A stretch of DNA of 64,000 bases. Origin: an uncultured Alphaproteobacteria bacterium (GTDB taxonomy: Bacteria; Pseudomonadota; Alphaproteobacteria; Rhizobiales; Devosiaceae). Numbering within the stretch: the stretch's first letter is position 1; the number at the start of each line of letters is the position of its first letter. Shown here in pieces: positions 23,188 to 42,490 of this stretch. The position numbers and the translations under genes are program-made. The DNA is taken from contig CAWCMZ010000002.1 of NCBI GenBank assembly GCA_963796775.1, forward strand, positions 368,066 to 432,065. Reading direction: 5' to 3'. Below the pieces are notes generated by a model. It was not told the DNA's origin and searched no databases. It was given only the letters and a program-made list of their open reading frames with translations.

Positions 23188-24230
23188 TTACTCGATCGAG
23201 TTGACGGTCGACGGTGGGCGGCTTCAGGTTGCCCCAGAAGGCCGGGTCATCGACATTGGACTTGTCGATCGCAGCGCCCGGGAGCTTGATGTTTGGCCCC
23301 CAGGCTTCATTGGTAACGGTGCCCTTGAGACCGATAACGTCGTACTCGCCCGGCTTGATTTCTGCCTTGGCCACGATCTTGTCCATGAACATGGCGACGG
23401 CCGCGGCCTGGGCATAGAGCGGCTGCTCGACCTCGACGTTGAGCCAGCCCTTGCGGATCAGGTCGAGACCGACCGGAGCGCCGTTCGAGCTCATCAGCAT
23501 GATGTCGCCCGGCTTCTTGCCAGCCGACTTCGAGCGACGCAACCACGGCGACCGAGAGATGCGCGGCGTGCGAGAAGATCAGGTCGATATCGGGATTGGC
23601 GACCAACTGGTCGGCAGCGATCGTGCCGGCATTGCTGGCCTCCCACTGCATGGCGGGCAGCGAGATGATCTTGACGTCGGGGAATGCGGCCATCTTCTCC
23701 TCGAAGCCCTTCTGGATGTCGAGGGTGTAGGGATCGCCCGGGTCGCCGAGAACCTGCAGCACCTTGCCCTTCACCGAGCCGTATTTTGCGGTGAGCAGTT
23801 TTTCGGCCTGCTCGGCGGCGACGTAGCCGATCTCGACGGTGCCGGCGACCGAGGTGAAGGCCGACGGCGTCGAGGTGATCTGGCGGTCGAACTCGACCAC
23901 CGGGATACCGGCCGCCATGGCGGCTTCGATCGAGGGCTTCAGCGCATTGAAGTCGACCGCCGCGAGAATGATCGCCGCAGGCTTCAGCGCAATGACGTCG
24001 TTCATCTGCGACTGCTGGGTATCGGTCTTGTTGTCGGCATTCAGCGTTTGCATCTCGTAGCCGACCTGCTTGAGGAACATCTCCAGCGCCGAGACCGAGC
24101 CGGTCTGGAATTCGTCGAGCAGAGTCGGCACGAGGTAGTAGACCTTGCCCTTGGTCTGGGCCCAGGCCGGCGTCAGCAGGGCGAGGGCCACTGCGACGAC
24201 GCCGAAGACGGATAGAAGTATTCGCTTCAT
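23188..24230 (-). CDS. Monosaccharide ABC transporter substrate-binding protein (RbsB type); frameshifted
   Basis: [10 protein letters not shown] signal peptide, [18 protein letters not shown]. Confidence 0.88.
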
Positions 24231-24271
24231 TTCGTTCGCTCCTGTCTTGCCGGATTCCCTGTCATTGCCCC

Positions 24272-25041
24272 TCAGCCCGCCGGTCCGGCACCGGCGAGGG
24301 TTTCCCCGGTGATCATACCGATCACCGCATCGGGACTTGTATCCTTGCGCTGCCACATCGCCGGCCACGACGCCCTGGCGGATCACCACGATCCGGTCGG
24401 CAACCTGGAAGGCCTGCTGCATGATGTGTGTGATGATGACGACGCCGATGCCCTGACTGGCGACGGCGCGGATCATATCGAGGCCGCGCCGCGTCTGCTC
24501 GACGCCCAGCGCGGCAAAGGGCTCGTCGAGGAGCACCAGCTTGCCGCCCCAGTGGACGAAGCGGTTGAGCTCGATCGCCTGGCGCTGGCCGCCTGACAGG
24601 TGCTCGACCTTGGTGCGGAGCGAGGGGATGCGCGTGCCGGCGTCTGTCGAGCGCCTTGGCGACCACTTCTTCCATGGCCTTTTCGTCGAGGATGGGAATG
24701 CCCAGCACCTTCCGCGTGAGTTCGCGGCCCATGAAGAAATTGGCGACAACGTCGACATTGGTGCAGAGCGACAGGTCCTGGTAGACGGTCTCGATGCCGG
24801 CGGCCTTGGCCTCGGACGGGGACTTGGCGAGGAATTCGCGGCCCTCGAACAGCATGCGGCCCGACGTCGGCTCCAGCCCGCCGGCGATGATCTTGACCAG
24901 CGTCGACTTGCCGGCGCCGTTGTCGCCGAGCAGCGCCACGACCTCGCCCTTGCCGATGGTGAAGCTGATGCCCTTGAGCGCTTCGATGGCGCCGTAGTTC
25001 TTGTTGATGTTGTCGAGGACGAGCAGCGGTTCGAAACTCAT
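24272..25041 (-). CDS. Monosaccharide ABC transporter ATP-binding protein; frameshifted
   Basis: [31 protein letters not shown]. Confidence 0.9.
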
Positions 25042-26209
25042 GCGGCGAGCCCCTTGCAGCGGGTCGGCGTCGGCGCCAAACATCTGGCCGAACTGCGGGG
25101 ACAGGACACCGGCGACGGCAAGCGCCGCAGCGCCGCGCAGCACCGTATGCTGGCCGCCGTCCGACGAGGATCAGCCGCGGGGCGGCCGGTTGCGGCGCGC
25201 GGAGACCGAGTTGGCGAGATCGGGCGACGGCGGTCGGCGAGTTCGCTCAAGCAGCGTTTCCGATGCGAGGCCGCCCAGCACGATGGTCTCGGGGTCGAAC
25301 AGGTTCTCGATGGTGGTGATCGCGTTGCCCGGAACACGTGAGCGACCGAACCTGCCCAGGCGCGCGCCGTGCTGCCGCGCGGGCGGCGCCCAAAGGCCTC
25401 GAGCGAGACATAGCGCTCAAGGCAGCCGCGATTGCCACACGGACACGGCTCGCCATCGGGGACCAGCGGGATGTGGCCGATTTCGCCGGCATTGCCCCAG
25501 GCTCCGCGCAGCGGCGCGCCGTCATGCACCATGGTGCCGCCCAGACCGACGCCGAAATAGAGGTAGTAGAAATCGGCAAACTCGGCGCCGCGGCCATAGA
25601 GCCTGCTCGCCAAGCGCCGCGGCTGCCATATCGGCTTCGATGAAGGCGGGCAGACCGGTGGCGGCGGCGAGCCTGTCGCGTAAGGGCGACGTTGCCCCAG
25701 CCCGCCATCGTAGTGGGGCCGACGAAGCTCATCGACTCGACATCGAACGGGACCGGGCAGCGCGAGGCCGACGCCGAGGAGGCGAGCGCCACGGCTGCGG
25801 CCGCGCGGAGTTCACCGGCCAACTCCGCTGATCAGGGCGAAGGCCTGGTCGGGGGAGGCCTGCGGGGCCGCTCGTTCGCCGCTCGCGACGACTTCGCCCG
25901 CGAGATTGACCAGCGCGGCCTCAATGCCGAGCGGAGTCAGGTGGATGCCGATGGCGTAGCCGCCATCGGGGTTGATCCGCAGAGTCGGAAGGCGGCAGGC
26001 CGCGGCCCTTCGGCTCCTCGCGGAGCGACAGGATGAGACCCTGCCTCCTCGAGTTCGCGGATGATCGTCGAAACCGTCTGCACCGTAAGGCCGACTTCCG
26101 CCGGCAATGTCGGCCGCGCGTCGTCGGCTCCGCTCCGCCGGATCGCTTCGAGCACGATCCGCCGATTATACGGCCGTCCGAACTCTTGGTTCGTGCCTTT
26201 GAGGGCCAC
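25038..26209 (-). CDS. ROK-family transcriptional regulator; heavily frameshifted
   Basis: N-terminal HTH (NRRIVLEAIR, GLTVQTVS), GVGLGG, GNAGEIGHIP, CPCGNRGCLERY. Confidence 0.85.
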
Positions 26210-26454: not shown

Positions 26455-27255
26455 CTAGAGCAGGCCACCGAGCCCCAGGCTGATGGTGGTACCGCCAACG
26501 CTGACTGAAACGCCGTCGCCTCCGCCGACCGAAACGTCGACACTAGTGTTGCCGACCCCGACATCGATAGAGACGCCGCCATCACCCGTACCCACGCTGG
26601 CACTTAGCCCCGCGACGCTAATTCCTGCCGTTCCGCCGTTGCCACCGGCGCTTGAGGTGGAGGTGCGTGCTTGCTTGCCACCGGCTTCGTTGATCGAGGC
26701 TGTACGCCCGCCCCTACCCTTGAGCGCGAGGCCGCCACCCTTGGCCACCGTCGCAGTTTGACCTGCAGGGACGAGCGCACGCGCGCCGGTCGCGATGTCG
26801 GTTACCTCGACGCGCCCGCGCGTCACTTGGACCGAGGCTTTCCGGTCGCCCGAGGTGACGATGAAATGGGTGCCTTTGACCGCCGCGGCGAGATACGGTG
26901 TTTCCACGGCAAAGTGCTGAACATTCTGCACCTCTGCCTCAACCTCGACCGTGCCGAAAGACTGCTCGACCGTGGTGAAGCGTTTGCCCGCTCTGTCATG
27001 GATCCGGATTTGCGTGGAACCGCCCAGACTGATGACCTCCGCGTCGCGCTGGAAATCGACCCTGCCATTGCCAAGTGTGCGCACCACCCGGTCATCCGAC
27101 ACCACGTCGCCGCGCTGCAGCCTGGTCCAGTCGCCATTGACGAGCTGCAGGACGGCACCCCGCAGCTTGACCGCCACCCAGTCGTCGGCAAGTGCCGGAA
27201 GCGGCAGCATGGCTAGAAGAGCAATGGCAAGGATTGTCAATGTTCTGGTCAGCAT
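26455..27255 (-). CDS. Secreted FecR-domain protein with Gly/Ser/Val-rich tail
   Basis: Signal peptide ..LPALA/DDW, FAVETPYLAAAVKGTHFIV, VQVTRGRVEV. Confidence 0.75.
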   Translation of the reverse strand: MLTRTLTILAIALLAMLPLPALADDWVAVKLRGAVLQLVNGDWTRLQRGDVVSDDRVVRTLGNGRVDFQRDAEVISLGGSTQIRIHDRAGKRFTTVEQSFGTVEVEAEVQNVQHFAVETPYLAAAVKGTHFIVTSGDRKASVQVTRGRVEVTDIATGARALVPAGQTATVAKGGGLALKGRGGRTASINEAGGKQARTSTSSAGGNGGTAGISVAGLSASVGTGDGGVSIDVGVGNTSVDVSVGGGDGVSVSVGGTTISLGLGGLL

Positions 27256-27475
27256 CGCTTCACCTGGTCGGTCGCCCATGGTCGATGGCTGACATTTGCA
27301 CCACAATCCTGATGGACGATCGACTAACGCCCCAGCCCCGCACTGCCATTGGCATCTTATATTTGCAGGGGTCCGTAATGACCCGGTGAAGCGAACTGCT
27401 AAAATTGTTCGCATACACCCGGCACCCGCGCATTGCGGGGCAATTGTAGTAGGCCGTCGTCTGGCGCGCCCGATG

Positions 27476-28782: not shown

Positions 28783-29649
28783 CTAGCGCGGGCTGAATAT
28801 GGCCCGCATCAGACCATCGGGGCGGCGGAAGGCCACGATGTCCTCGCTATGATCCGGGTCGCTGCGCACTGCGGCGACCAATCGGGCGCGCAACTGCTCC
28901 CAGCCGGTGGGCTGGATGCGGCTTGAAGACTGGTCGATGAGTGCAGCTGCGAATCCATGCCCAGCCAAGAGGTCGATCAAGCGGCCAAGGCTGGCCCCGG
29001 CGTCCTCGAGCATCGTGGGCGCGATCTCGCAGACCAGGACGATGTCGTGCGGGTGATCGCGCAGCAGCCCCCGTCCGCCCTCGAGCACGTGCCACTCACT
29101 GCCCTGTACATCCAGCTTGATGACCAGCGGCAGACCCCTCACTCCCTGATAGTCGTCCAGGCGCCGGATTGGGACTACTACCGACCTACGGCCCGAGCGC
29201 GACCCCAGCCGATGATCACCCAGATTCGTTGGGTTGAGATTGAGGTGCTGACGCCCGGTGCGATCGGATAGCGCCCAGGCGTTGACGACAATATTGGTGA
29301 GCCCGCTAAGTGCCACATTTGCGCGCAGCCGGCGCAGATTCGCTTGCTCGGGCTCGAAGCTGTGGATGCGGCCGCGGCTGCCGAGCTTGTGTGCCGCGAT
29401 GATCGTGTGCCAGCCGATATTGGCGCCCACATCGAGCATGTCGGCGCGCGCATCCAGGAGATTCAGAAGCAGCGCACTCGTCGCCGCTTCCCACATGCCG
29501 TCGCGGCAGATCGTCCGGGAAACGATGGTGTCGTTTGCCCCATGCATTTCGAAACGGAACGACGGGAGCCCGCTGATGCTGATGGTCCGCCTGCGCGGTA
29601 ACGCGGCGAGCAGGGGAGCATTGATCAGCCGGCCGAATAGTTTGCCCAT
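28783..29649 (-). CDS. FkbM-family SAM methyltransferase
   Basis: LDVGANIGWHT, SFEPE, IKLDVQGSE. Confidence 0.9.
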   Translation of the reverse strand: MGKLFGRLINAPLLAALPRRRTISISGLPSFRFEMHGANDTIVSRTICRDGMWEAATSALLLNLLDARADMLDVGANIGWHTIIAAHKLGSRGRIHSFEPEQANLRRLRANVALSGLTNIVVNAWALSDRTGRQHLNLNPTNLGDHRLGSRSGRRSVVVPIRRLDDYQGVRGLPLVIKLDVQGSEWHVLEGGRGLLRDHPHDIVLVCEIAPTMLEDAGASLGRLIDLLAGHGFAAALIDQSSSRIQPTGWEQLRARLVAAVRSDPDHSEDIVAFRRPDGLMRAIFSPR

Positions 29650-29743
29650 GGCTTGGTGTAGGGCATGGGGTCGCCCGCGGGAAGGGGAGGGACGCTAGCC
29701 TGTTTCGGCAGGAGGTCCAGACCGTTGGCATGTCTCGCCACCG

Positions 29744-31303
29744 ATGCTAGCTGCTGTTGTATTCCGTTTCGTCGCACGCAATGATCCGCTGATGATTGAC
29801 ACCACGACCCTCGAGGCGAGCCTGTCGAAGCTTGCGCGCGATCTTCGCGAAAGTCCGGCCGAGTTTCCCAAGGGTCGATTTGCCGGACGTGGCATCGTCA
29901 TCGCGGCTGGTGGCACGACCATCTTCACCAATGCATATGTGCTGGTTTCTGTGTTGCGCAACACGCTGGGGTGCCGTTTGCCAATAGAAGTGTGGCACTT
30001 CGGCGCCGCAGAAATGTCGCCTGCCATGGCCCACCTGCTGGAGGATCTGCAGGTCAAGGTTATCGACGCCGTGCCCCGGATAGCGGCCGCCGGAGTGAAT
30101 TTACGAGATGGCTGGCAGCTGAAATCATTCTGCCTCGCCCACTCGGGCTTCGCCGAATGCCTGCTGCTCGACGCCGACCAGGTGCCCGTTGTCGACCCGA
30201 CCGGCGTTTTCGGCTGGCCGGAGTACCGGGAGACGGGAGCGGTATTTTGGCCGGACATTGTTGCCATCCGCCGCGCGAGCCCGGTGTGGGACTTAATGGG
30301 TCTCGCGCCGGAGCAGCCGGAAATCTCCTTCGAAAGCGGCCAGATTCTTGTCGACAAGCGCCGCCATTGGCGCGCTCTTTCGATCGCCATCGGTCTCAAT
30401 GCGGCGGCCGATTTGACCTATCGCCTCGTCTATGGAGACAAGGATACTTTCCTCCTTGCCTGGCGGCTCGCGGGCGAGCCGTTCAGTTTCATTCCGCATC
30501 TGCCCTTCCGCGGCGACAACTGCCTGTTTCAGCGCGATTTCGACGGCAAGACCCTGTTCCAGCACCGCACCACAGGCAAGTGGTCGTATGCGGCCGATGA
30601 GCAGCCGACCGAAGGATTTCGCCATTTCGACGCCTGCGTCGCAGCCCTGACCGAATTGCGGAAGCGCTGGAACGGGCGTGTATTCAACCCGCCCGATCGC
30701 TCTGCTGCGGCACGCCAGGCGGAGGTCGACCTCATCGAGACCGGCCGTTTCAGGCTCGAAATTGTCGGGGAGGAAAACGACGAAATCGAACTGCTGCAGT
30801 TCGGCGAGCTCGGCCATGGCAGGTCTGGGTTCAGGCAGAATTGGTGGTGCGAAGAGGCGGGGGGCAGCGTTGAGCTCCTGTTGCGGGATGGCGATCGGAT
30901 CACCTACCGTCTGGCGCGACAGGACGACGGCAGCTGGGAAGGGCGGCATTATCTGCGGAACCCCCGGGCCGTAGTGCTGCGTCCCGCCGGTTTCGGCATG
31001 CAGCCGGCCAAGGATGGCGCAGCTGGTCTCGCCGATACTCTGTTGCGTGCCATCGGGTACCCTCACCAGTCCGACGAGGAGTGGGCGACGCACCGTCCGG
31101 CGCTCGTGCTGGTTGCCACATCCGATCCCGGCGTCGCCCGGCAACTCCGCCAGATTGCCGACAGTGTGGAGGCATCAACGGCCGGACCTCTGACCGAGCT
31201 GGTCGACGCGCTGGAGCAGCAGCAGGTGGTGACCCGCATCGCCAACGACTTTGGCGCGGTGCGCAGGCACTACCGTTCGTTGATCGATGACGGGAATGGT
31301 TAG
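29744..31303 (+). CDS. GT71-like (Mnn2/Mnn5-type) glycosyltransferase with C-terminal extension; alternative start 29792
   Basis: GRGIVIAAGG, LPIEVW, GWQLK, LLLDADQVP..DP, GAVFWPD, ESGQILVDKRRHW, YGDKDTF. Confidence 0.82.
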   Translation: MLAAVVFRFVARNDPLMIDTTTLEASLSKLARDLRESPAEFPKGRFAGRGIVIAAGGTTIFTNAYVLVSVLRNTLGCRLPIEVWHFGAAEMSPAMAHLLEDLQVKVIDAVPRIAAAGVNLRDGWQLKSFCLAHSGFAECLLLDADQVPVVDPTGVFGWPEYRETGAVFWPDIVAIRRASPVWDLMGLAPEQPEISFESGQILVDKRRHWRALSIAIGLNAAADLTYRLVYGDKDTFLLAWRLAGEPFSFIPHLPFRGDNCLFQRDFDGKTLFQHRTTGKWSYAADEQPTEGFRHFDACVAALTELRKRWNGRVFNPPDRSAAARQAEVDLIETGRFRLEIVGEENDEIELLQFGELGHGRSGFRQNWWCEEAGGSVELLLRDGDRITYRLARQDDGSWEGRHYLRNPRAVVLRPAGFGMQPAKDGAAGLADTLLRAIGYPHQSDEEWATHRPALVLVATSDPGVARQLRQIADSVEASTAGPLTELVDALEQQQVVTRIANDFGAVRRHYRSLIDDGNG

Positions 31304-32555
31304 GCCGAAGGCACTCTTCATTGCTCCGGCCGCGCCGGCCCGCACCGGCAACGGCCTTGCAATGCGGCTCGGGACGTTCCTCGACGCGATGACCAAAGTC
31401 GCCGACACCGAACTGCTGATTTTGCCGGTCTCAGGACCTCCCCCCGAAGCAGAAGAACTGGCGAACGCATTCGGCGTCGCGGCGACGACGATCCCGGTCG
31501 CGGGACGCGCCGATACGCATTTGGCGCTCATCTCCCTGCTGGGCTCGCCGGCCCAAAAGCTGGCCGCCTTCGAGGCGTACGGCAGGGGCAGCCGCCATGC
31601 CTCGCTTTCCCTCCCGGTACTTGCCAATGTCCGTGACTTCGCCGCGGATCGCCAGTTCGACCTGCTTCACGTCGGGCGGCTCTACATCGCTGACGCCGCA
31701 TCGGCGGTTGTGGCGCCGACATGCACCCTCGATCTTGACGAGGACGACGCCTCGGCCTGGCGCCGCCGCGCCGGACTTGCGCGTGTCGCCGGTGAAACGG
31801 ACCTCGCGGACTGGTCCGAGGCCGAGGCGCGCGCCGAGGATTCGCTCCTCCACCGCGTGGCCGCGCGCTTCGACGCCCTGTTTATCGCAGGAGGTGCAGA
31901 CCGTGACCGGCTGACGGCGCGACACCCTGAGTTGGTCCCCGAAATCGTGGTCAATTCCGTCGCCTTTCCACCGGCATCGCGCCGCGATGATGACGGCAAA
32001 ACCGTCGTGTTTGTCGGCAGCCTGGGCTACGCCCCAAATGCCGAGGGGTTGGCCTGGTTTGCAAACGAGGTTCTCCCCGAAATCGCCGCCGTTACGCCCA
32101 TGCGGCTGCGGATCGTCGGGCGCGGCATGTCCCCGGCGGTGTCCGCGCTGCGAGGCCATGCGAACATTGATCTCATCGGCGAGGTCGTCGACGTTGCAGC
32201 AACATACAAGGACGCAACCATTGCCATTGCGCCTCTGCACTCGGGCGGAGGGACGCGCATCAAGCTGATCGAGGCGGCGGCCTTCGGCGTTCCCATTGTC
32301 TCCACCACTTTGGGTGCCGAGGGCCTAGATCTCGGATCTGATGCGATGTGGTGTGCTGACAATGCTGCCGGGTTCGCGGCCGCGATCATTGCCGCCCTCT
32401 CAGATCCAGCGGAGCGGGAGTCACGGGCCCGGAAGGCCTCTCGCGCCGCGCGGCAACTGTATGATCGCGATATGGTGGTCGACGCTTTGGCTTGCCGGTT
32501 TGACGAAATCATCCATAAAGGGCCTCGTCACCTCGCCGGTGACGTTCGTTTCTGA
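31287..32555 (+). CDS. GT4-family glycosyltransferase
   Basis: FVGSLGYAPNAEG, APLHSGGGTRIKLIEAAAFGVPIVST. Confidence 0.88.
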   Translation: MTGMVRPKALFIAPAAPARTGNGLAMRLGTFLDAMTKVADTELLILPVSGPPPEAEELANAFGVAATTIPVAGRADTHLALISLLGSPAQKLAAFEAYGRGSRHASLSLPVLANVRDFAADRQFDLLHVGRLYIADAASAVVAPTCTLDLDEDDASAWRRRAGLARVAGETDLADWSEAEARAEDSLLHRVAARFDALFIAGGADRDRLTARHPELVPEIVVNSVAFPPASRRDDDGKTVVFVGSLGYAPNAEGLAWFANEVLPEIAAVTPMRLRIVGRGMSPAVSALRGHANIDLIGEVVDVAATYKDATIAIAPLHSGGGTRIKLIEAAAFGVPIVSTTLGAEGLDLGSDAMWCADNAAGFAAAIIAALSDPAERESRARKASRAARQLYDRDMVVDALACRFDEIIHKGPRHLAGDVRF

Positions 32556-33398
32556 GAGGCCGCGACGCCCCCTTCGCCAATCATCTGCAGGACGCTGCGG
32601 CGCGAGTACCGGTTGCACCCGCAATCGGAACTTGCGCGCGAGCGCTTTTTGTTCATGTCCGCCGACCCGGCGATCGCCGGCCCCGCGCTCGAAATCTTCG
32701 ATATCGAGATCGGCGAGACGCAGGGGTTCTATCGTGTGGTTCTGCCAAATGGCGCCGTTGCCGAGGGGAGTTCGGCGCATTGTCTGGGCTATCTGCATGG
32801 CCTGATGCTGTGGGACCTGAAGCAGTCGCACGCTGGCAATCCCATGGTGCACGGAGCAACGGTGGTCATCGACGGCAAGCGGCTGCTCATCGTCGCCGGC
32901 AAGGGAACCGGCAAATCGACACTCGCGCTGGGCCTCATGGCGATGGGTCACGACGTCGAGGGCGACGAACACCTCGTTATCGGACAAGATGGCGTGATCG
33001 CGCGCCCCAGGTCCCTCCGCATCAAGCCGCACAGTCTGGAGATGGTCGGCGACCTGCCACCATCCGTCTGGCAGTCGCCGTCTTACCGTACGCCCTATGG
33101 AATGAGACTCTATGCCGTGAGCCCGGCCCTCTTCGGACGGCCCTGGCGCATCACGCCCGGACCGTTGCACAGCCTCGTGTTCGCTGAAGCGAATCACGGC
33201 GGACTCTCAATTGCCACCCCGATGTCGGCTGACGAGGCTTTCCGCCGATTGATGGAAAATGGATATTTCCTTGAGGGCGGCATCGTGCAGATGGCCGGAC
33301 GCCTGCGCCGAATGGTTGCCGAGACCCCCGCCTATCTACTGCGACTTGGAAGCATCAGTTCGGCAGAATGGCACCTCAAAGCAATTGCGGGGTCTTGA
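32556..33398 (+). CDS. HprK-related P-loop kinase (lasso/RiPP-associated type); start uncertain
   Basis: HGATV, Walker A AGKGTGKST, GDE acidic motif. Confidence 0.8.
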   Translation, partial: EAATPPSPIICRTLRREYRLHPQSELARERFLFMSADPAIAGPALEIFDIEIGETQGFYRVVLPNGAVAEGSSAHCLGYLHGLMLWDLKQSHAGNPMVHGATVVIDGKRLLIVAGKGTGKSTLALGLMAMGHDVEGDEHLVIGQDGVIARPRSLRIKPHSLEMVGDLPPSVWQSPSYRTPYGMRLYAVSPALFGRPWRITPGPLHSLVFAEANHGGLSIATPMSADEAFRRLMENGYFLEGGIVQMAGRLRRMVAETPAYLLRLGSISSAEWHLKAIAGS

Positions 33399-33451
33399 CC
33401 CAGCGCGGGGTTTGTTCTGTATTCCTTCTGGTATTTTTAGAGGATTGCGCA

Positions 33452-33691
33452 ATGACCGGCCATGGTGATGACGACCGTCTGAACACAGCGCTTGAGACCA
33501 TCGATGCCTCGAAGCGTGTCGCTATGCGCAAGCTTCTGGTCGGGGCGGCCTTTGTCCCGCCCGTCGTTGCATCGTTCGCGATTAACGGGATGATGGTGAC
33601 TTCCGCGCAAGCGCAGGGCATCGACGAACTCGAGCCTGTCCAACCAGACCAACCAGACCTGACGGTCGAGCGCGATAGCCACATCCAATAG
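33452..33691 (+). CDS. Putative RiPP precursor peptide (79 aa as written; 69 aa ending at 33662 if one G is removed from 33616-33618)
   Basis: RBS GAGGA, ATG 33452; leader DASKRVAMRKLLVGAAFVPPVVASF..AQA; central position in a cluster that contains an RRE. Confidence 0.7.
   Translation: MTGHGDDDRLNTALETIDASKRVAMRKLLVGAAFVPPVVASFAINGMMVTSAQAQGIDELEPVQPDQPDLTVERDSHIQ
33641..33659 (+). repeat. 9-bp tandem repeat (CAACCAGAC)x2
   Basis: caaccagac caaccagac c; encodes NQT-NQT in the shifted frame. Confidence 0.8.
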
Positions 33692-33701
33692 AAGCAGCGA
33701 T

Positions 33702-34805
33702 TTGCCGTCAGGCGTTCGCGTTTCCGCTGCGCTCATTGTTCGGGACGAAGAGAAGTTCATCGAGGGGTGCCTGGCGTCGGTCGCAGGGCATGTTGATGAG
33801 ATTGTGGTCGTCGACACGGGGTCTCAGGACGCCACCATCCAGATCGTCGAGCGTTTTGGCGCGTTGCTGCTGCACCGCAAGTGGCGCGACGACTTTGCCT
33901 GGGCCCGCAACGAAGCACTGGCGGCAGCGACCGGTGACTGGATTCTCTACATAGACGCCGACGAGCGTCTGAGCTTACCCCCCGGTACCAGGCTTTCCGA
34001 CGGTCTCGACATCGCGGACGTCATTGCAGCGCGGGTGCAGTTTCGTCCCCGACCGAACGCCACGCCGTATCGCGAGTATCGCCTCTTTCGCAACACCCCT
34101 GACATTCGCTTTCGCGGCACCATGCACGAGACCATTGTCCCCGACCTGAGGCGGCTGCAGGCGACAGGCGGCCGCATTGTCGACAGCCCTGCCGAAATCC
34201 TGCATCTCGGCTATGAGGGTGACCAGTCCGCCAAGAATGTCCGCAACATCCCCCTGTTGCGCGCAGCGTTGGCGAATGAGCCCGAGCGTCTCTACTACTG
34301 GCACCATCTCATCGCGACACTGGATGCCATGGGCGACACCGACGAGGCGATCGCCGTAGCCAAGGAGGCCCACGGACGGATTACCGGTGCCGATCTCAGC
34401 CCACCCGACCGAGCTGTCGCGGCGCTCATCCTTACGACCTACGCGCGGATGCTCTATCGCCGCGGCGAGGATGTGTTGCCGATCATCGAGCAGGGCCTGG
34501 AACTCTATCCGACCCACGCACAGCTGCAATTGCTGAAGGCGCAGGCGCTGATCAAGCGCGATCAGCTCGACGCGGCGCTGGTCATCCTTGAAGATTTGGC
34601 GACCATCGATGGGGCCACCTTCGCCGACCCCGTGCTGTCGCATGACCGCCGCATCTTCGACGTTTTCGCGCACGACCTGATGGGCGTTGTGCTGTTGCGT
34701 CTTGGCAGACGCGCGGAAGCCGCCGAGGCGTTTGGCCGCGCAGCCAAGGGCGCACCCGACGAACTTTCCTACCGGGTGAAGGCCGCAGCACTCAGGCAGA
34801 GCTGA
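33702..34805 (+). CDS. GT2 glycosyltransferase with C-terminal TPR-like helices (SunS-like architecture)
   Basis: LIVRDEE, DEIVVVDTGSQDAT, DDFAWARN, IDADE, FRGTMHE, ILHLGY, then TPR-like repeats. Confidence 0.87.
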   Translation: MPSGVRVSAALIVRDEEKFIEGCLASVAGHVDEIVVVDTGSQDATIQIVERFGALLLHRKWRDDFAWARNEALAAATGDWILYIDADERLSLPPGTRLSDGLDIADVIAARVQFRPRPNATPYREYRLFRNTPDIRFRGTMHETIVPDLRRLQATGGRIVDSPAEILHLGYEGDQSAKNVRNIPLLRAALANEPERLYYWHHLIATLDAMGDTDEAIAVAKEAHGRITGADLSPPDRAVAALILTTYARMLYRRGEDVLPIIEQGLELYPTHAQLQLLKAQALIKRDQLDAALVILEDLATIDGATFADPVLSHDRRIFDVFAHDLMGVVLLRLGRRAEAAEAFGRAAKGAPDELSYRVKAAALRQS

Positions 34806-35922
34806 TGGTCGACGGTGCAAGCAGCGACTGCACTACTTTGAGACGAAGCGCCTGCCGTCCGAACCAGCTGCCACCCCCCTGAGCGCGTTTCAGCCGCGCA
34901 CCAGCCATGCCGAGCAGCAATTCTCCCGCCACACCATCGTAATTGCCGCGCCGGTGCTCGCGGCCCCCGATCGTCCGCGCGCGGACGGTTGCGTCCGCCT
35001 GGATCGCGAACGGCGCGTCCACCGGCAGCCGGAGCTCTTCGGCGGCTGCCGCCAGCCACAGATCGAGCATGGCGAGGAGGCGCGGGTGCGTGGCGGCGAG
35101 GGCCGCTAGGTCATCGCGTTCGTCCTCGGTCAGCGCCGCAAAGCCCTTGGCGAATTCGTAGAGCCCCTTCAGGCTCATCAGCCCGAACTTATCACCCCGA
35201 TGCGCGATGTGGTGATGTACCGCGCAGTACAGCAGATCAAGGTGCGGCGGCAGGATGCGAACCACCGAGCCATCGCGACCGGTGACCGGCACGCTCTGCG
35301 TCCAGAGCATCGGGGTCGGCAGCAACAGGTCGGCGCGGCGCATCGCGCCGCGATCGTGGAACTCCAACCAGCCAGGCAGGTCGTCGCGATAAAGGTTGAG
35401 TTCATGATGCCAACCGGCAGGGTTTTCGTACCCGGGCATTGGTGCGTAGCCGGCCTTGTGTGCGATCTCCTGCGCCGCTCCGGCGCGTCCGGGCGTCAGC
35501 AGATCGAGGTCGCCCATCGACCGCCAGTCGGGTGCGCCGGTCCATAGCGATCGCGCTCCCTTGAGCAGAACGGGTTCGATGCCCGCCCTGTTGAGCAGCC
35601 CCGCCAGCTCGACGAGCCGATCCAGCTTGCTTGCGCGATTGGCCCGATGCTCGGCCAGCCGGTCGGCTAGCGCCTGTGTGATCGTCTGCAGCCCGTCGGC
35701 GGATCGCAGCGCCGGAATGCCTGCCAGCAGATGCTTGTCTTCGGCGTCCGATGCCAGCGCCGCAAGTAGCGACCGATCCGCAGCCGCCCGCAGCACCCCA
35801 TCCCATCCGCCCCCGATCAGGCGCTGGCGCAGTGCGAGCATCTCGGCGGGGGAGAGGGAAAAGGCGAGGCAGAGGCGAAGCTCCGCAACCGGGTCAGCCG
35901 ACGGCCCTGTCGAAGAGGTCAT
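34792..35922 (-). CDS. Nucleotidyltransferase family protein (NTP_transf_5-like)
   Basis: AGIEPVLLKGA, RSMGDLDLL, LEFH, YCAVH. Confidence 0.8.
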   Translation of the reverse strand: MTSSTGPSADPVAELRLCLAFSLSPAEMLALRQRLIGGGWDGVLRAAADRSLLAALASDAEDKHLLAGIPALRSADGLQTITQALADRLAEHRANRASKLDRLVELAGLLNRAGIEPVLLKGARSLWTGAPDWRSMGDLDLLTPGRAGAAQEIAHKAGYAPMPGYENPAGWHHELNLYRDDLPGWLEFHDRGAMRRADLLLPTPMLWTQSVPVTGRDGSVVRILPPHLDLLYCAVHHHIAHRGDKFGLMSLKGLYEFAKGFAALTEDERDDLAALAATHPRLLAMLDLWLAAAAEELRLPVDAPFAIQADATVRARTIGGREHRRGNYDGVAGELLLGMAGARLKRAQGGGSWFGRQALRLKVVQSLLAPSTISSA

Positions 35923-35927
35923 CCGGC

Positions 35928-36689
35928 TCAGCTTCTGCGGTGATAGACTTCGAGGTCAGGCAGCCCCCAGCACTGGATGCCCATGTCAGAGGCCATGATG
36001 CCAAGGCCCTCGGTCTCGATCTCACCAAGCCCCCACTCGCTGCCCTTGGAGCGGATTCGGTTGCTCCTGACCCCGTATGGAAAGGGTGGAAAGATCAGCC
36101 CCTCACGATGCAGATCGGCACGGATCAGCAGCATCGTCCCGCCAACGGCATCCAGCCGGACGGCACCTTTGCCGCGCCGGTGCTGCAGTAGTGTCTTGCC
36201 ATCGTCTGTCCACGAGTTGGCATCGAAACTGCCACCACCCGGTTGCGTAACGGCGTGCGGCGTCACGATGTCAAAGCCGGTGGCCAGCAGCTGGGCAATG
36301 ATGTCGGGGGGATATTCGACCATGTCCACATCGATCCAGAGGACCCAGTCCTCGTCGCGCAGCGCCGAGAACAACAGCCGATTGCGCGCCCGGGCGAGTG
36401 TCTTGCGACGGATCAGCTGGTAGGCGTTCGTCCACCGGTGCAGTCCACGCGGAGCGGCGAAGCCGAAGTCATGGTTGGCAAGCGTCACGCGGGAGAACCG
36501 GGCTTCCAGCCTGGGTCTGAGCTCAGCAAGCTGGTTTGCGGTGCCGTCGGTGCTGTCACCTTCGAGTATTCCGAGCGTCAGCCGTTCCGCTGGCCATTGC
36601 AGCACCTCCAGCAGTTCGACATAACGCGGAAGATGGGCCGCTGCGGTTTTGACCGGCGTCAGGATAAGGACTTTGGGGTGATCGTTCAC
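35928..36689 (-). CDS. GT62-like (Anp1/Mnn9/Van1-type) glycosyltransferase
   Basis: RBS GAGGAG, GTG 36689; KVLILTPVK, LEGDSTDGT, RRKTLARARNRLLFSAL, WVLWIDVD, LDAVGGTMLLIRADLHREGLIFP, IETEGLG. Confidence 0.82.
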   Translation of the reverse strand: MNDHPKVLILTPVKTAAAHLPRYVELLEVLQWPAERLTLGILEGDSTDGTANQLAELRPRLEARFSRVTLANHDFGFAAPRGLHRWTNAYQLIRRKTLARARNRLLFSALRDEDWVLWIDVDMVEYPPDIIAQLLATGFDIVTPHAVTQPGGGSFDANSWTDDGKTLLQHRRGKGAVRLDAVGGTMLLIRADLHREGLIFPPFPYGVRSNRIRSKGSEWGLGEIETEGLGIMASDMGIQCWGLPDLEVYHRRS

Positions 36690-36791
36690 TTCATCTCCTC
36701 GCCGGCTTGGCAGTTGGCCAGACGGCGTTACAATGCCTTCCCGTCTCGCTGTAGCCAAGGGTCCAGCGAGGCGCCGCACCTGGAGAGAGAA

Positions 36792-37091
36792 TTGACTGAA
36801 GAAATCGATCGCGAAGCCGTTTTCTCCATCGCACCGGGCCTCGAGGTCACGCCGGTGCCCGATGGCTCAATGATCTACCAGAATTCGCGGGAGCGCGTTC
36901 ACTACCTCAATCCCACGGCGACAATCGTCTTCGAATTGTGTGGGATGGGCAAATCGTTCGCCGACATCGAAAGTTTCATCAGTGACGGTTTCGCGCTGGG
37001 CGCCCCGCCATCCGATGACATCCGCGCCTGCCTCAATTCTCTGCTTGTTGAGGGGCTGGTGACCGGCGCTGGTGCGCCGGTCAATCAGTGA
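36792..37091 (+). CDS. Stand-alone PqqD-family RiPP recognition element (RRE)
   Basis: RBS GGAGAG, TTG start; [35 protein letters not shown]. Confidence 0.85.
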
Positions 37092-37146
37092 CCTCGTGCG
37101 CGCTCGATCAGATGGCCCTGTGGGATAGCGAGCGCGGCCGCTTCAC

Positions 37147-37925
<779 letters not shown>

Positions 37926-37926
<1 letters not shown>

Positions 37927-38718
37927 CAGTGTGCGCCCTCCGGTGCGGCCGGGCCGCCGAGATAGGCCTCCTGCACCACCGGGTCGTTGCGGACCTGATC
38001 GGGCGTACCTTCGGCGATGATCCGGCCGCCGGCAAGCACCGAAATCCGGTCGGCGAGCGAGAACACGACGTGCATGTCGTGCTCGATGATGACCTTGGTC
38101 ATGCCGCGCGCCTTGATCTTCTTGAGCAGCTCGATGGTGGTGTTGGTGTCGTGCCGGCTCATGCCCGCGGTCGGCTCGTCGAGCAGCAGCAGCCGCGGGT
38201 GCTGGATCAGGCACATGGCGAGTTCCATGCGCCGCTTGTCGCCGCGGCTCAGCGCGCCGGCATGGGCATGCGCGCTGGCCGTGCAGGCCCACGTCCTCGA
38301 GCGTCGCCTCGGCCTCCTCACGAATCTCGCGTCTCGCTGTCGAGCGCCTTGATGAAGTTCAGCTTGAACGGCGCCGTCGCGCTTGGCGAAGGCCGGCGTC
38401 ATCACGTTGTGCAGCACCGACAGATCGGGAAAGATTTCCGGCGTCTGGAACACCCGCGCGACGCCCATCTGGTTGATCTGGTGGGGCTGCTTGCCGGTCA
38501 GGATCTGCCCGTCGAACACCACCGCGCCGCTGGTCGGGGCCAGCCGGCCGACGATGACGTTCAGCAGCGTCGACTTGCCGGCCCCGTTCGGTCCGATGAT
38601 CGCGAGGGTCTCGCCCTCGCTCGACCGTCAGATCGATGTCGGCCAGCGCGTGCAGACCGCCGAAGGTCTTGTGGACGTCATCGACGTGCAGGACGACGTT
38701 GTTCTGGCCGGTGGTCAC
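37926..38718 (-). CDS. Liv-type ABC ATP-binding protein (LivG-like); frameshifted
   Basis: [29 protein letters not shown]. Confidence 0.88.
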
Positions 38719-38728
38719 GCGCTGCCTC

Positions 38729-39926
38729 CTATTCCGCCGGCTGAGACGCGACGGCCTCAGGTCCGGGGCCGCCCGATCTGCGGGAGCGGACATAGCTGCC
38801 CAGAGGCGCCGCGCGCCCTCCATCATGCCGCCGGGCAGGAACACCACGACCAGAACGAAGACCAGCCCGAGCGTCAGCTGCCAGCCATCGCCCACGAAGG
38901 GGCGGACGATGTCGACGACGAAGTCGCGGACGCCGTCGGGCAGCCAGCCGAACCAGTCGTGCAGGACGCTCTCGTTGATCTTGGAGAAGATGTTCTCGAA
39001 ATACTTGATGAACCCCGCGCCGAGGACCGGCCCCATCAGCGTACCCGCGCCGCCCGAGGATGGTCATCAGCACGACTTCGCCCGAAGCGGTCCACTGCAT
39101 GCGCTCGGCGCCCGCCAGCGGGTCCATCGCCGCCAGCAGGCCGCCGGCCAGCCCGGCATACATGCCCGAGATCACGAAGGCGCTCAGCATATAGGGCCGG
39201 GTGTTGATGCCGGCGTAGCTGAGGCGCGTGCGGTTGGTCTTGATGGCCCGCAGGATCATGCCGAAGGGCGAGCGGAAGATGCGCAGCGAGAGGTAGAAGG
39301 CGACGATCGCGATGATCGGCGGTGAAGTAGTAGCCGACGTTGAAGGTGAAGACCCAGTCGCCGAGGCTCACCTTGGCGCTATCGTTCATCACCAGGCCGA
39401 ACAGGTGCGGCGAGGTCGGCGAGCCGGGCCCATCAGCACCTGCGGGTCGTTGCCGTAGACCTGCAGCCCCGTCTCGCCATTGGTGAGCGGCGTCAGCACC
39501 GAATAGGCGAGGTTGTAGCACATCTGGGCGAAGGCGAGCGTCAGGATCGAAAAGTAGATGCCGGAGCGCCGCAGGGAGATGAAGCCGATGAACAGCGCAA
39601 AGATCGCCGGAAACGACGACCGCCAGCACCAGGCCGGGCAGCACGTTGAAGTCCAGCAGCTTGTACATCCAGACGACGCTGTAGGAGCCGACGCCCAGAA
39701 ACGCCGCGTGGCCGAAGCTGAGATAGCCGGTCAGCCCGAACAGGATGTTGAAGCCGATCGCGAAGATTCCGTAGATCGCGAAGCGCTGCATCAGATCGGG
39801 GTAGCCGGCGTTGAACTGCGCCAGCCCGGAGCCTTCGGGAAACGGCTGCAGCAGGATCGGCGTCGCCAGCGTCAAAACCACGACGAGCAGCAGGAAGCGC
39901 GTGTCGTTCTTGCTCAGCCCGAGCAT
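38729..39926 (-). CDS. Liv-type ABC permease (LivM-like); frameshifted
   Basis: [39 protein letters not shown]. Confidence 0.87.
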
Positions 39927-39930
39927 GGCC

Positions 39931-40965
39931 TCACTCCTCCATCACGCCCTGCCGGCCCAGGAGGCCGCGCGGGCGGGTCAGCAGGATGATGATCGCGACC
40001 AGGTAGATGATGACCTGGTCGATGCCGGGGATCATCGCCTTGATCTCGTTCATCGAGGCGAAGGATTGCAGGATGCCGAGCAGGAAGCCCGCGAGCACCG
40101 CGCCGGGCAGCGATCCCATGCCGCCCACCACGACCACGACGAAGCGAGAGCACCAGGAAGTCCATGCCCATGTGGTAGTTCGGGCGAGAGGATCGGCGCG
40201 TACATCACGCCGGCTACGCCCGCGACGACCGCGGCGATGCCGAACATGATGGTGAAGCGCCGGTCGATATTGATGCCGAGCAGGCCGACCGTTTCGCGGT
40301 CGCTCATGCCGGCGCGCACGACCATGCCGAACGTGGTGAAGCTGCAGGAAGGCGAACACGCCACCAATGACCACCGCGGCGAACAGGAAATAGACCATCC
40401 GCCAATAGGGATAGATGATCGCGTTCGGGCCGAAGCCGATCAGCGCGCCGAAGTCGAACGACCCCGTGAAGAGCGCCCGGCGCGCCGGTCTGGATCGGGT
40501 TGGCGCCGAAGAAGAACTTGACCACTTCCTGCAGCACGATGGCGAGGCCGAAGGTCACGAGAATCTGATCGGCATGCGGGCGCTTGTAGAAGTGCTTGAT
40601 CAGACCCCGCTCCATCGCGACGCCGACCACGAGCATGACAGGGATGGCCAGCAGGATCGCCAGCGGAACGGACCAGTCGATCAGCGCCGCGCCGAGGTCG
40701 GGGCCGAACCAGCTCTCGACGTAGGGCACCTTGACCTTGAGCGGATTGCCCAGAAAGTCCTTCTGCGTGTCGTCGATCTGCTCGAACGAGAGCCCGAGCA
40801 GCCGCTGCAGCGTCACGGCGCAGAAGGCACCGATCATGAACAGCGCGCCGTGGGCGAAATTGACCACACCGAGCGTGCCGAAGATGAGCGTCAGCCCCAG
40901 CGCGATCAGCGCATAGGCGGACCCTTGTCGAGGCCATTCAGAATCTGCAGGATTATGGCGTCCAT
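39931..40965 (-). CDS. Liv-type ABC permease (LivH-like); frameshifted
   Basis: ALGLTLIFGTLGVVNFAHGA, VVVVVGGMGS, RPRGLLG. Confidence 0.87.
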
Positions 40966-41084
40966 GTCGCCGGCCCCTCAAAGACGCCCACGGCGTACCG
41001 GTTGCACGATACGCCATGGTGCCTTGTAGCAGCCAACCGCGCATCTGCGCGATTGGCGAATGTCCCAGGTTTTTCGAGCCGGTG

Positions 41085-42490
41085 CTACGCGCCCGGATTG
41101 CAGGCGCCGAGCGAGGCTTCGGGGCCACCGAACATCGCGTTGTCCGGCTCGTACCAGACCTGGCTGACGGGCGTGTTGTCCACGATCTCCAGAGTGTCGT
41201 ACTCGTTGGAGGGATTTTCCTTGCCCTTCATGACCAGCACATCCTTGAAGCACTGGTGGTCGGCCGACCGGTAGAGCGTCTTGCCAGTGCCCAGCCCATC
41301 GAACAGGAAGCCCTTGTTGGATGGGGAATCGATGCCGTCGAGGCTGCCGGTGTTCTCTCCAGCGCGGCAACGACGTCGCACGGATTGAAGCTGCCGGCGC
41401 GTTCGACTGCGTCCGCATAGAGCAGAATCTGCGCGTAGCAGGTCTGCGCCGAGTTGGACGGCGGATGGCCGTACTTCTCGCCGAACGACTTGACGAACGC
41501 CTTGGTGCCTTCGTCGGAGAGCTGCCAGTTCCAGTTCATCGAGCCGTAGACGCCCTTGATGTCGTCGCCGGCGCCTTCGGCCATCAGCTCGGAGTAGAGC
41601 GGAACGATGATCTCGAAGTTCTTGCCGTTGGCCTGCTTGTCGCGGAGGCCGAACTGGACCGCCTGGGTCAGCGAGTTGACCATGTCGCCGCCGTACTCGT
41701 TCAGGATCAGCACGTCGGCGCCGGAGTTCAGGACCGGAGCAATGTAGGACGAGAAGTCGCCCGCGCCGACCGGGGTCAGGACGTTCTGCACGGTCTGCCA
41801 GCCAAGGGCCTCGGTCGCCTTGGCGATCGAATTCCTGCTGGGTCCAGCCCCAGGTGTAGTCGGCGGTCAGGTGATAGGCCCGCCGCTCGGCGCCGTAGGC
41901 CTTGCTCAGCACCGGAGCGAGGGCCGCGCCGGACATGTAGGCGTCGAAGAAGTGACGGAAGCCGTTGGCCTTGCGGTCCTTGCCGGTGGTGTCGTTGGAG
42001 TGGGTCAGGCCGGCCATGAAAATGATGCCGGCTTCCTGGCACAGGCCCTGCACGGCGACGGCGACGCCCGAGGACGAACCGCCATTGATCATGACGACGC
42101 CGTCCTTCTGGATCATCGACTGGGCCGACGCCCGCGCCGCGTCCGACTTGGTCTGCGTGTCGCCGGTGACGTACTCGACCTTCTTGCCCAGGATGCCATT
42201 TCCCTTGAGCATCTTGGAGCTGAAGGTGTTGAGCATGCCGCCGTCGCCTTCACCATTGAGGTGTTCGACGGCAAGCTGCTGGGCGAGCAGTTCGTCCTTG
42301 CCCTCGGCGGCGTACGGGCCTGTCTGCGGCACGTTGAAGCCAAGCTTGACCGTGCTGCCGGTCGGCTCGTTGGTGTAGGCGTAGGCGCTGCGACGTGAAG
42401 ATCAGCGGCGCGACGCCTGTGGCGAGAATTCCGGCAAGGCCCGCCTTTCAGCACACCGCGACGGCTCGAACCCGTCTTGAGTATGGTCAT
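41085..42490 (-). CDS. Liv-type ABC substrate-binding protein with Tat signal; frameshifted
   Basis: SRRGVLK, PQTGPYAAEG, GGSSSGVAVA, TADYTWG, DHQC. Confidence 0.87.

Follow-up and report, generated by a model that had tools for sequence, protein, structure and literature searches.

The described system closest in logic to the one studied here is that of the linear polyphosphorylated peptides (LPPs) of Popov et al. (2026; PMC13381572), which combines a recognition element for peptides that ribosomes make and that are modified after translation (RiPP recognition element, RRE) with an HprK kinase and a nucleoside triphosphate (NTP) transferase and has no cyclase. Among its core genes are also those for an MsbA-like exporter and for a dedicated signal peptidase of the archaeal type, and none for glycosyltransferases (GTs). 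The LPP leader consensus is YxxPxVLxHQxIxFETxxS, phospho-Ser3 was reported in AQSNWK, and the class is described as restricted to Bacillota. The locus that we analyzed is a cluster of nine genes (28783..37091) within a window of 64,000 nucleotides, the whole stretch of DNA under analysis, from an uncultured alphaproteobacterium of the Devosiaceae (contig CAWCMZ010000002.1). Comparisons with published systems extend to the consulted parts of the papers cited.

The cluster shares with the LPP system a stand-alone RRE, a kinase of the HprK-like kind, an uncharacterized NTP transferase and the lack of a macrolactam cyclase. Both have a conserved leader with an aromatic-x-x-Pro-x-Val motif ahead of a variable core, and a signal-peptidase-type cleavage (predicted here) with a Ser-Asn pair just past the cut; the one to three precursors per LPP cluster can be likened to the precursor copies seen in our family. 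However, the cluster has neither a dedicated archaeal-type signal peptidase nor an MsbA-like exporter, the window flanks encoding importers. Its leader is built on RR or KR plus A-x-A and has only aromatic-x-x-P-x-V in common with the LPP consensus. In addition, it has an N-x-T motif, a dedicated GT2-TPR and the glycosyltransferases GT4, GT62 and GT71, it occurs in Proteobacteria, Acidobacteria and Actinomycetes rather than Bacillota, and a profile of its RREs matched LppB (9x8z) at E 0.38 only. Since three defining features of LPPs were looked for and none was found, we do not regard the cluster as an LPP member. A first-pass annotation of this DNA had known of no described class with such a combination, with novelty subject to a search; this view was not supported, as the LPP system has the same RRE-kinase-nucleotidyltransferase logic without a cyclase.

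Precedent for a kinase with a nucleotidyltransferase (NTase) also exists in lasso peptide tailoring (PadeK, PsmK and PsmN; PMC6993621, PMC9266682). Like paeninodin and pseudomycoidin, the cluster pairs an HprK-like kinase with an NTP_transf_5-type enzyme, and the precursors of its genus end in Ser; in contrast to them, many members of the wider family end in other residues. The cluster also differs from paeninodin-type lasso clusters in having no cyclase C or B2 peptidase, and in its kinase G-D-E takes the place of the Asp-Asp pair of the lasso kinases. The GT2-TPR resembles SunS and ThuS of the glycocins, and GmaR, over its full length in both fold and sequence. Glycocins have a double-glycine leader, a peptidase-ATP-binding cassette (ABC) exporter and a Cys-rich, disulfide-bonded helical core. 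None of these three features is present in the cluster, which unlike glycocins has an RRE and chain-extending glycosyltransferases. The trio of RRE, HprK-related kinase and NTase recalls the NCBIfam HPr-rel-A cassette, but the kinase scored 44 of 200 bits against the cassette's TIGR04352 model (1e-11), and TIGR04353, which we take to be the PqqD of that cassette, had no match. No paper in the literature searched paired two HPr-rel-A cassette terms.

Housekeeping export signals have been described as RiPP leaders for the chryseobasin-type and DybA lipoprotein RiPPs (PMC13056109). Modification in the cytoplasm followed by export and cleavage by a general signal peptidase, as proposed below for the cluster, would resemble these; they differ in using Sec or lipoprotein signals and the chemistry of multinuclear non-heme iron oxidative (MNIO) enzymes, and twin-arginine translocation (Tat) goes unmentioned in the consulted main text of that report. 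RRE-Finder (bioRxiv 2020.03.14.992123) mentions RRE-glycosyltransferase fusions, which may bear on priority. Neither this precursor family or gene set, nor the combination of a dedicated peptide glycosyltransferase, yeast-mannan-type enzymes and an N-x-T motif, was found in the literature searched, which covered few subscription papers. The cluster would combine the leader-guided working of an LPP-type pathway with a glycosyltransferase of the glycocin type, and is a member of neither class.

Conservation of the cluster and its precursor

The cluster is real and conserved. The open reading frame (ORF) positions and the Pfam and NCBIfam matches agreed with the first-pass annotation on nine genes and their families, and the small ORF taken as the precursor matched no Pfam or NCBIfam family. 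Of 63 genomes belonging to the genus, 11 had strong kinase matches (E < 1e-63), whereas the 137 other family genomes searched had none. All nine genes were found in 6 of the 11 genus loci fetched, most of the others ending at contig ends. The precursor was present in all ten genus loci whose contig reaches that far; homologous clusters lacking the small ORF, which would have spoken against the first-pass reading, were not seen among these.

A scan for the precursor pattern identified 35 loci in genomes of Alphaproteobacteria, Acidobacteria and Actinomycetes, eight of which coincide with genus loci; cultured relatives among them are Devosia insulae DS-56, Devosia sp. Root413D1 and Bradyrhizobium diazoefficiens SZCCT0138. 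The gene counts for these loci are lower bounds, as some contigs end early: GT2-TPR was identified in 33, where it follows the precursor, the RRE in 30, the kinase and GT4 in 27 each, the NTase and GT62 in 23 each, GT71 in 21 and the FkbM-family methyltransferase in 12. A leader-only metagenome scan yielded 104 loci, of which the best 80 were retained; each of these had one or more of the genes for RRE, kinase, GT2-TPR and GT4, and 66 had GT2-TPR. A profile search placed 734 representatives at 50% identity in the precursor family, of which the best 150 were viewed, and several loci had tandem precursors in two to five copies. A class-wide sample showed the precursor in only 4 of 400 other genomes, with a single strong match, and the family is therefore patchy.

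The cluster moves as a unit among unrelated genomic sites, and the genes that vary in relatives are of glycan-tailoring kinds (GT10, GT90, GT25, GT2, sulfotransferase, epimerases and LicD). From their flanks 144 ORFs were picked, and 130 were searched at E 1e-8 after the removal of 14 that looked like shadow frames or fragments. This search identified no lasso cyclase, B2 peptidase, YcaO or Lan enzyme, no signal peptidase, flippase or polymerase, and no conserved exporter; the sole radical SAM protein was MoaA-type, and a type I secretion set adjoined one locus only (L028). The view that the cluster has no scaffold-forming enzyme was upheld, none being present in the cluster or in the flanking ORFs.

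These neighborhoods bear on whether the glycosyltransferases build a surface polysaccharide (lipopolysaccharide or exopolysaccharide), the peptide, RRE and kinase forming a separate or regulatory module. The GT4 does resemble PEP-CTERM exopolysaccharide enzymes (TIGR03087, 1e-32), relatives encode GT10, GT25, GT90 and epimerases, and LPP loci lie within capsule loci (PMC13381572). We nevertheless consider this reading highly improbable, as neither the 130 flanking nor the 34 cluster-associated ORFs included a flippase, a polymerase, a polysaccharide export gene or an initiating transferase, the most constant neighbor of the precursor is a peptide-type glycosyltransferase, and the whole cluster shifts between unrelated sites.

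Several loci depart from the common arrangement. In Acidobacteria-type loci L052, L129, L139, L146 and L147 the same leader stands on a Ser-rich protein of ~215 residues. These loci also encode an RRE, LicD, a fusion of a nucleotidyltransferase with an aminotransferase, a methyltransferase and GT4, but neither a kinase nor a GT2-TPR, and are possibly a phosphodiester-decorating variant. An Actinomycetes version of the cluster includes a 1206-residue secreted-type protein with a beta-propeller repeat and IPT/TIG domains (L059:11435-15052). In one relative a transposase (insertion sequence) breaks the GT2-TPR (L021:10258-11361, the same as L040:10702-11805), and broken copies of the cluster therefore occur.

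A proposed route to an exported glyco-phosphopeptide

We tentatively favor, as something close to an even call, the reading that the cluster makes an exported glyco-phosphopeptide, in which the leader is both the grip for the RRE and a twin-arginine export signal and the core is decorated in the cytoplasm. The proposal builds on which genes are present and how they are conserved, on the pattern of the leader, on motif enrichment and on enzyme families, and we infer all of its steps. The RRE would bind F-x-x-P-x-V of the leader, after which a GT2-TPR of the SunS/GmaR type would put the first sugar on the Ser-Asn-x-Thr motif; the Thr/Ser hydroxyl would be the most likely acceptor, as it is for relatives of the enzyme. 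GT4, GT62 and GT71 would then lengthen the chain, which would probably be mannose-rich, with differences between species arising from GT10, GT90, GT25, sulfotransferase or FkbM. The kinase would phosphorylate a core Ser, either beside Asn or at the C-terminus, for which LPP (PMC13381572) and pseudomycoidin (PMC6993621) offer precedent, and the NTase would add a sugar or nucleotide to the phosphate. Finally, Tat would export the bulky product and signal peptidase I would cut at Ala-x-Ala to release the core, which in many members is a few residues long and in others a surface-protein domain. A dedicated peptidase or exporter could be dispensed with because Tat and the housekeeping signal peptidase would do both jobs.

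The stand-alone PqqD-fold RRE (36792..37091, plus strand) was a weak match on its own (PF05402, E 0.023), whereas a profile of 33 RRE sequences found the lasso RRE TfuB1 at E 4e-4; together with the conservation of the precursor, this bears out the earlier view of a stand-alone RRE and a precursor. Structure prediction of the RRE with the leader scored 0.50 against 0.00 for the best control (contact agreement >= 90%, partner pLDDT, the predicted local distance difference test, >= 63), a score rated weak, as 18 of the 157 complexes already solved score <= 0.60, and so do both of the mismatches that passed among 215, and one that possibly reflects memory of solved RRE-leader complexes. The co-folding thus predicted the leader contact and gave it weakly graded support.

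The leader of the window precursor (residues 1-54; 33452..33613, plus strand) has KR, the hydrophobic stretch FVPPVVASF as putative RRE site and Ala-Gln-Ala as predicted signal peptidase site. In 180 leaders, non-redundant at 70% identity, the consensus was FxxPVVASFxxxGLxxxxAxA, with RR (108) or KR (72) upstream of F-x-x-P-V-V-x-S-F and Ala at 10 and 12 residues past it in 70% and 71%. The A-x-A stood at this fixed distance in 147 of the 180, compared with 29.2 +/- 4.6 after shuffling, in a set drawn partly from profiles that included the A-x-A positions, and the commonest residue after it was Gln. The leader reads as a Tat-type signal followed by a predicted signal peptidase I site, the latter assigned from what we take to be the signal peptidase I consensus. 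TatC is encoded in the own genome of the cluster. The archaeal-type signal peptidase (TIGR02228) was not found in that genome, which is 73% complete, nor in three of five other cluster-bearing genomes; its matches in two Actinomycetes genomes were not seen among the cluster neighbors.

Some precursors extend into extracellular-type (Peptidase_S74, DUF11 and CHRD) or pentapeptide domains, with Peptidase_S74 fused to 4 of 25 in one sample, and some have IPTL-CTERM-like tails. Because of these continuations, the precursor tag may also serve on surface proteins. Peptidase_S74, a self-cleaving trimerization chaperone, was observed directly after an N-x-S/T core in L042 (9637-10068), L048 (9977-10411), L066, L067 and many metagenome loci, and in L057 tandem precursors with and without this domain lie side by side.

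Part of the leader evidence counts against Tat export. Only 3 of 45 precursors tested passed the TIGR01409 (Tat) cut-off and the window copy had no match, 40% of leaders, that of the window included, have KR rather than RR, and prolines stand inside the hydrophobic stretch, after which Asp often comes. The leader might then merely look like a Tat signal, being instead an amphipathic enzyme-binding helix or a membrane anchor, with the decorated peptide kept inside the cell or tethered uncut; the conservation of FVAPVVASF beyond what a signal peptide needs would also fit. We regard this as very unlikely given the fixed spacing of A-x-A with Gln or Ala behind it, the extracellular-type fused domains and a cluster with no peptidase or exporter.

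Turning to the enzyme proposed to prime the glycan, a profile of the GT2-TPR (33702..34805, plus strand; PF00535) came nearest to GmaR (1e-49), SunS (1e-38) and the ThuS entry 7msk (1e-30), and the protein itself reached 75 of 350 bits against the SunS model TIGR04195. Its structural model (pLDDT 94.8) matched the SunS/ThuS fold at ~1e-17, compared with 4e-8 for the next fold. Because its profile matches GmaR, SunS and ThuS and its fold SunS and ThuS, it groups with enzymes that place the first sugar on a peptide, and sequence and model make it a candidate peptide-priming glycosyltransferase. As a group, GmaR, SunS and ThuS act on Cys, Ser or Thr. The other glycosyltransferases are a GT62 of the Anp1/Mnn9 kind (35928..36689, minus strand; PF03452, 4e-46), which matched the structure of yeast Mnn9 at 1e-18, the GT4 (31287..32555, plus strand; PF13692, 9e-25) and a GT71 (Mannosyl_trans3) with a C-terminal extension (29744..31303, plus strand; PF11051, 6e-33), for which a sequence search gave no solved structural relative. 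The accessory FkbM-family methyltransferase (28783..29649, minus strand; PF05050, 1e-17; TIGR01444 above cut-off) probably leaves the glycan capped or methylated. The product had been pictured as a linear peptide defined by glycan chain, phosphate and methyl groups; a peptide-type glycosyltransferase is in keeping with this, but methylation is not a defining step, with FkbM in 12 of the 35 loci.

The core supplies the acceptor evidence. N-x-S/T occurred in 64 of 92 unique complete precursors of a leader-only set, against 23.4 +/- 3.9 after shuffling (the set includes L075 and one mis-parsed L068 row scored as a miss), in 26 of 35 of a second set (8.1 +/- 2.2) and in 23 of 51 profile hits whose match ends before the core (8.9 +/- 2.4); kin are not independent, so that these shuffle contrasts overstate significance. 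An initial count of 94/145 (5 rows dropped) was biased by a core-containing profile and was redone with the leader-only sets. Across 164 cores, N-x-T was present in 82 (19.6 expected) and S-N in 65 (30.2 expected), and 141 contained Asn. N-x-S by itself was not enriched (35/164 against 28.1 +/- 4.3), and N-x-S/T was absent from 51 of the 164. L051, L054, L068 and L145 have an Asn-free aromatic core ending DPFFRLFS, and in L054 a gene for an Asp/Asn beta-hydroxylase lies upstream of the RRE.

It is also conceivable, though unlikely, that the first sugar goes on the Asn amide, with the GT2-TPR acting as a cytoplasmic N-glycosyltransferase for N-x-T and GT62, GT71, GT4 and GT10 adding the outer chain. 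Asn is kept in lineages that have lost the +2 hydroxyl, which fits an Asn acceptor better than Thr/Ser priming, and N-x-T, which is fourfold enriched, is preferred over N-x-S, as it is by known N-glycosylating enzymes. STT3 was found in none of five cluster-bearing genomes, two of them 100% complete, and GT41 in one. If N-glycosylation takes place, it would therefore depend on an enzyme of the cluster, and the idea that a periplasmic oligosaccharyltransferase modifies the Asn was not supported. GT62, with its Mnn9 match, and GT71 belong to families that build the outer chain on fungal N-glycans. On the other hand, Asn is missing from 23 of 164 cores and may be a recognition residue only, as with Ser3-Asn4 in LppA, the literature searched shows no GT2 N-glycosyltransferase, and the nearest characterized relatives, SunS and ThuS, act on Cys, Ser or Thr (PMC11912497, a summary of RiPP glycosyltransferases). 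The broader proposal of a widespread, leader-guided bacterial N-glycosylation, in which the GT2-TPR would act on Asn, GT62/GT71 with GT10/GT90 would build a eukaryote-like outer chain and Tat would export the product, is equally doubtful.

The kinase (32565..33398, plus strand) has the His, Walker A GKS and G-D-E features of the HprK type; its family matches were below cut-off (PF07475, 9e-4), and a profile from its relatives found HprK structures. Its first TTG is at 32613, whereas relatives align from about 32565, with Met where the window reads ACG, and the start is probably near 32565. Within window positions 32555-32613, this ACG codon stands behind a good ribosome site, as a non-canonical start, a sequence error or a mutation. 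A second HprK-like kinase region lies beside a GT2 in the own genome (G000:C7, about 199300-201100; L032:8350-10050), with no family precursor there. The NTP_transf_5 protein (34792..35922, minus strand; PF14907, 6e-19), which has a nucleotidyltransferase fold like PsmN and LppN, gave a model with only weak matches to that fold (best E 2e-3, none at E 0.001).

These two enzymes would be central if the kinase made a phospho-Ser to which the NTase, like PsmN, linked the first sugar, all glycosyltransferases only extending the chain. Besides the PsmK/PsmN precedent (PMC6993621), the enriched S-N pair, the C-terminal Ser shared by all ten genus precursors and LicD, a phosphotransferase, in Acidobacteria loci would agree with this, and the RRE-kinase-NTase trio travels together even away from the precursor, having a locus of its own in the L055 and L062 genomes. 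We think this route quite improbable, however, because the GT2-TPR (33/35) is linked to the precursor more tightly than the kinase (27) or NTase (23), its clade primes peptides directly, and L059, L064 and L065 keep glycosyltransferases beside a degenerate kinase, with no NTase found. The C-terminal Ser was rejected as a family-wide kinase site, since outside the genus only 24 of 70 short precursors in one set and 19 of 62 in another have it. A proposed tracking of kinase loss with loss of the +2 hydroxyl in Ilumatobacteraceae loci was likewise rejected, as RRE-kinase-NTase sets exist elsewhere in at least two such genomes. L055, L062 and L148 (Ilumatobacteraceae-type) have repeated Pro-Asn or Ser-Asn units and C-termini like truncated sortase motifs.

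A few further points weigh against the glyco-phosphopeptide that we favor. The sugar identities derive from family names only, the IPTL-CTERM matches were below cut-off (17.9 and 13.1 of 20.5), LppN was inactive in the LPP study (PMC13381572), the Walker A Lys is missing from the kinase of L059, L064 and L065 and from one L047 copy, and one Acidobacteria group has precursor, RRE and LicD but no GT2-TPR in the locus.

The precursor copy in the window and its surroundings

The small ORF as called (33452-33691) encodes 79 residues, compared with 60-67 in 12 homologs, which it matches across its first 55 residues before diverging. It leaves the family reading frame at a GGG run (33616-33618) through a one-base frameshift, after which the called frame continues as an Asn-free tail to 33691. 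The shifted frame (33618..33662, plus strand) encodes a family-type core, ASTNSSLSNQTNQT-stop, with three N-x-S/T. This core resembles the tails of homologs, the nearest of which (P0003) ends SSNMTNQT, and in alignment its stop codon (33660-33662) coincides with those of three homologous genes, 13 bases being extra relative to L033.

Control genes of the same assembly switched frame in 3 of 20 cases (5 switches in 18 kb) and the importers flanking the cluster are also broken into pieces, which makes an assembly error plausible. An error in so short a gene has a chance of about 5% at this switch rate and is unlikely a priori, no contig of one sequencing run bridges the frameshift, and the kinase has ACG for Met; on these grounds a decaying copy is possible. 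We consider an assembly error more likely than decay. Metagenome contigs contained no exact copy of a 24-base pattern drawn from the shifted core, and no second precursor was found in the own genome (3.68 Mb in 7 contigs, 73% complete). The family-level conclusions rest on relatives and not on this frameshifted copy.

Within the cluster, GT71, GT4, kinase, precursor, GT2-TPR and RRE are on the plus strand and FkbM, NTase and GT62 on the minus strand; with both strands in use, the nine genes are not one operon. A promoter and terminator scan performed no better than chance. The 20 further flanking ORFs scanned in the window were importers (sugar, branched-chain amino acid), regulators and catabolic genes, in line with the unrelated catabolic and transport flanks described at first pass, and included no cyclase, peptidase or exporter. 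Enolase-family and FecR-domain genes also adjoin the cluster; the FecR-domain protein (26455-27279) has a Gly/Ser/Val-rich C-terminal tail and is not kept beside the cluster in relatives. The ABC importer genes for sugar and branched-chain amino acids and a ROK regulator (23300-26200, 37085-42330) are split across frames, and contigs of other organisms suggest single-base indels at 37268, 37396, 37402, 37499 and 37630.

Meaning for the precursor family

These analyses define a large, previously unannotated precursor family, whose leader has no Pfam or NCBIfam model, and provide a substrate hypothesis for GT62 and GT71 in bacteria, enzyme types otherwise familiar from the synthesis of mannan in yeast. 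They extend the LPP logic of 2026 to Actinomycetes and Gram-negative bacteria, in which Tat appears to have taken over export. If Asn were the acceptor, the family would represent a further route of N-glycosylation beside oligosaccharyltransferase and GT41, and its short tag would be of use in glyco-engineering. On that N-linked reading, the precursor of ~60 residues would amount to a portable glycosylate-and-secrete tag, one that is naturally fused to surface-protein domains.

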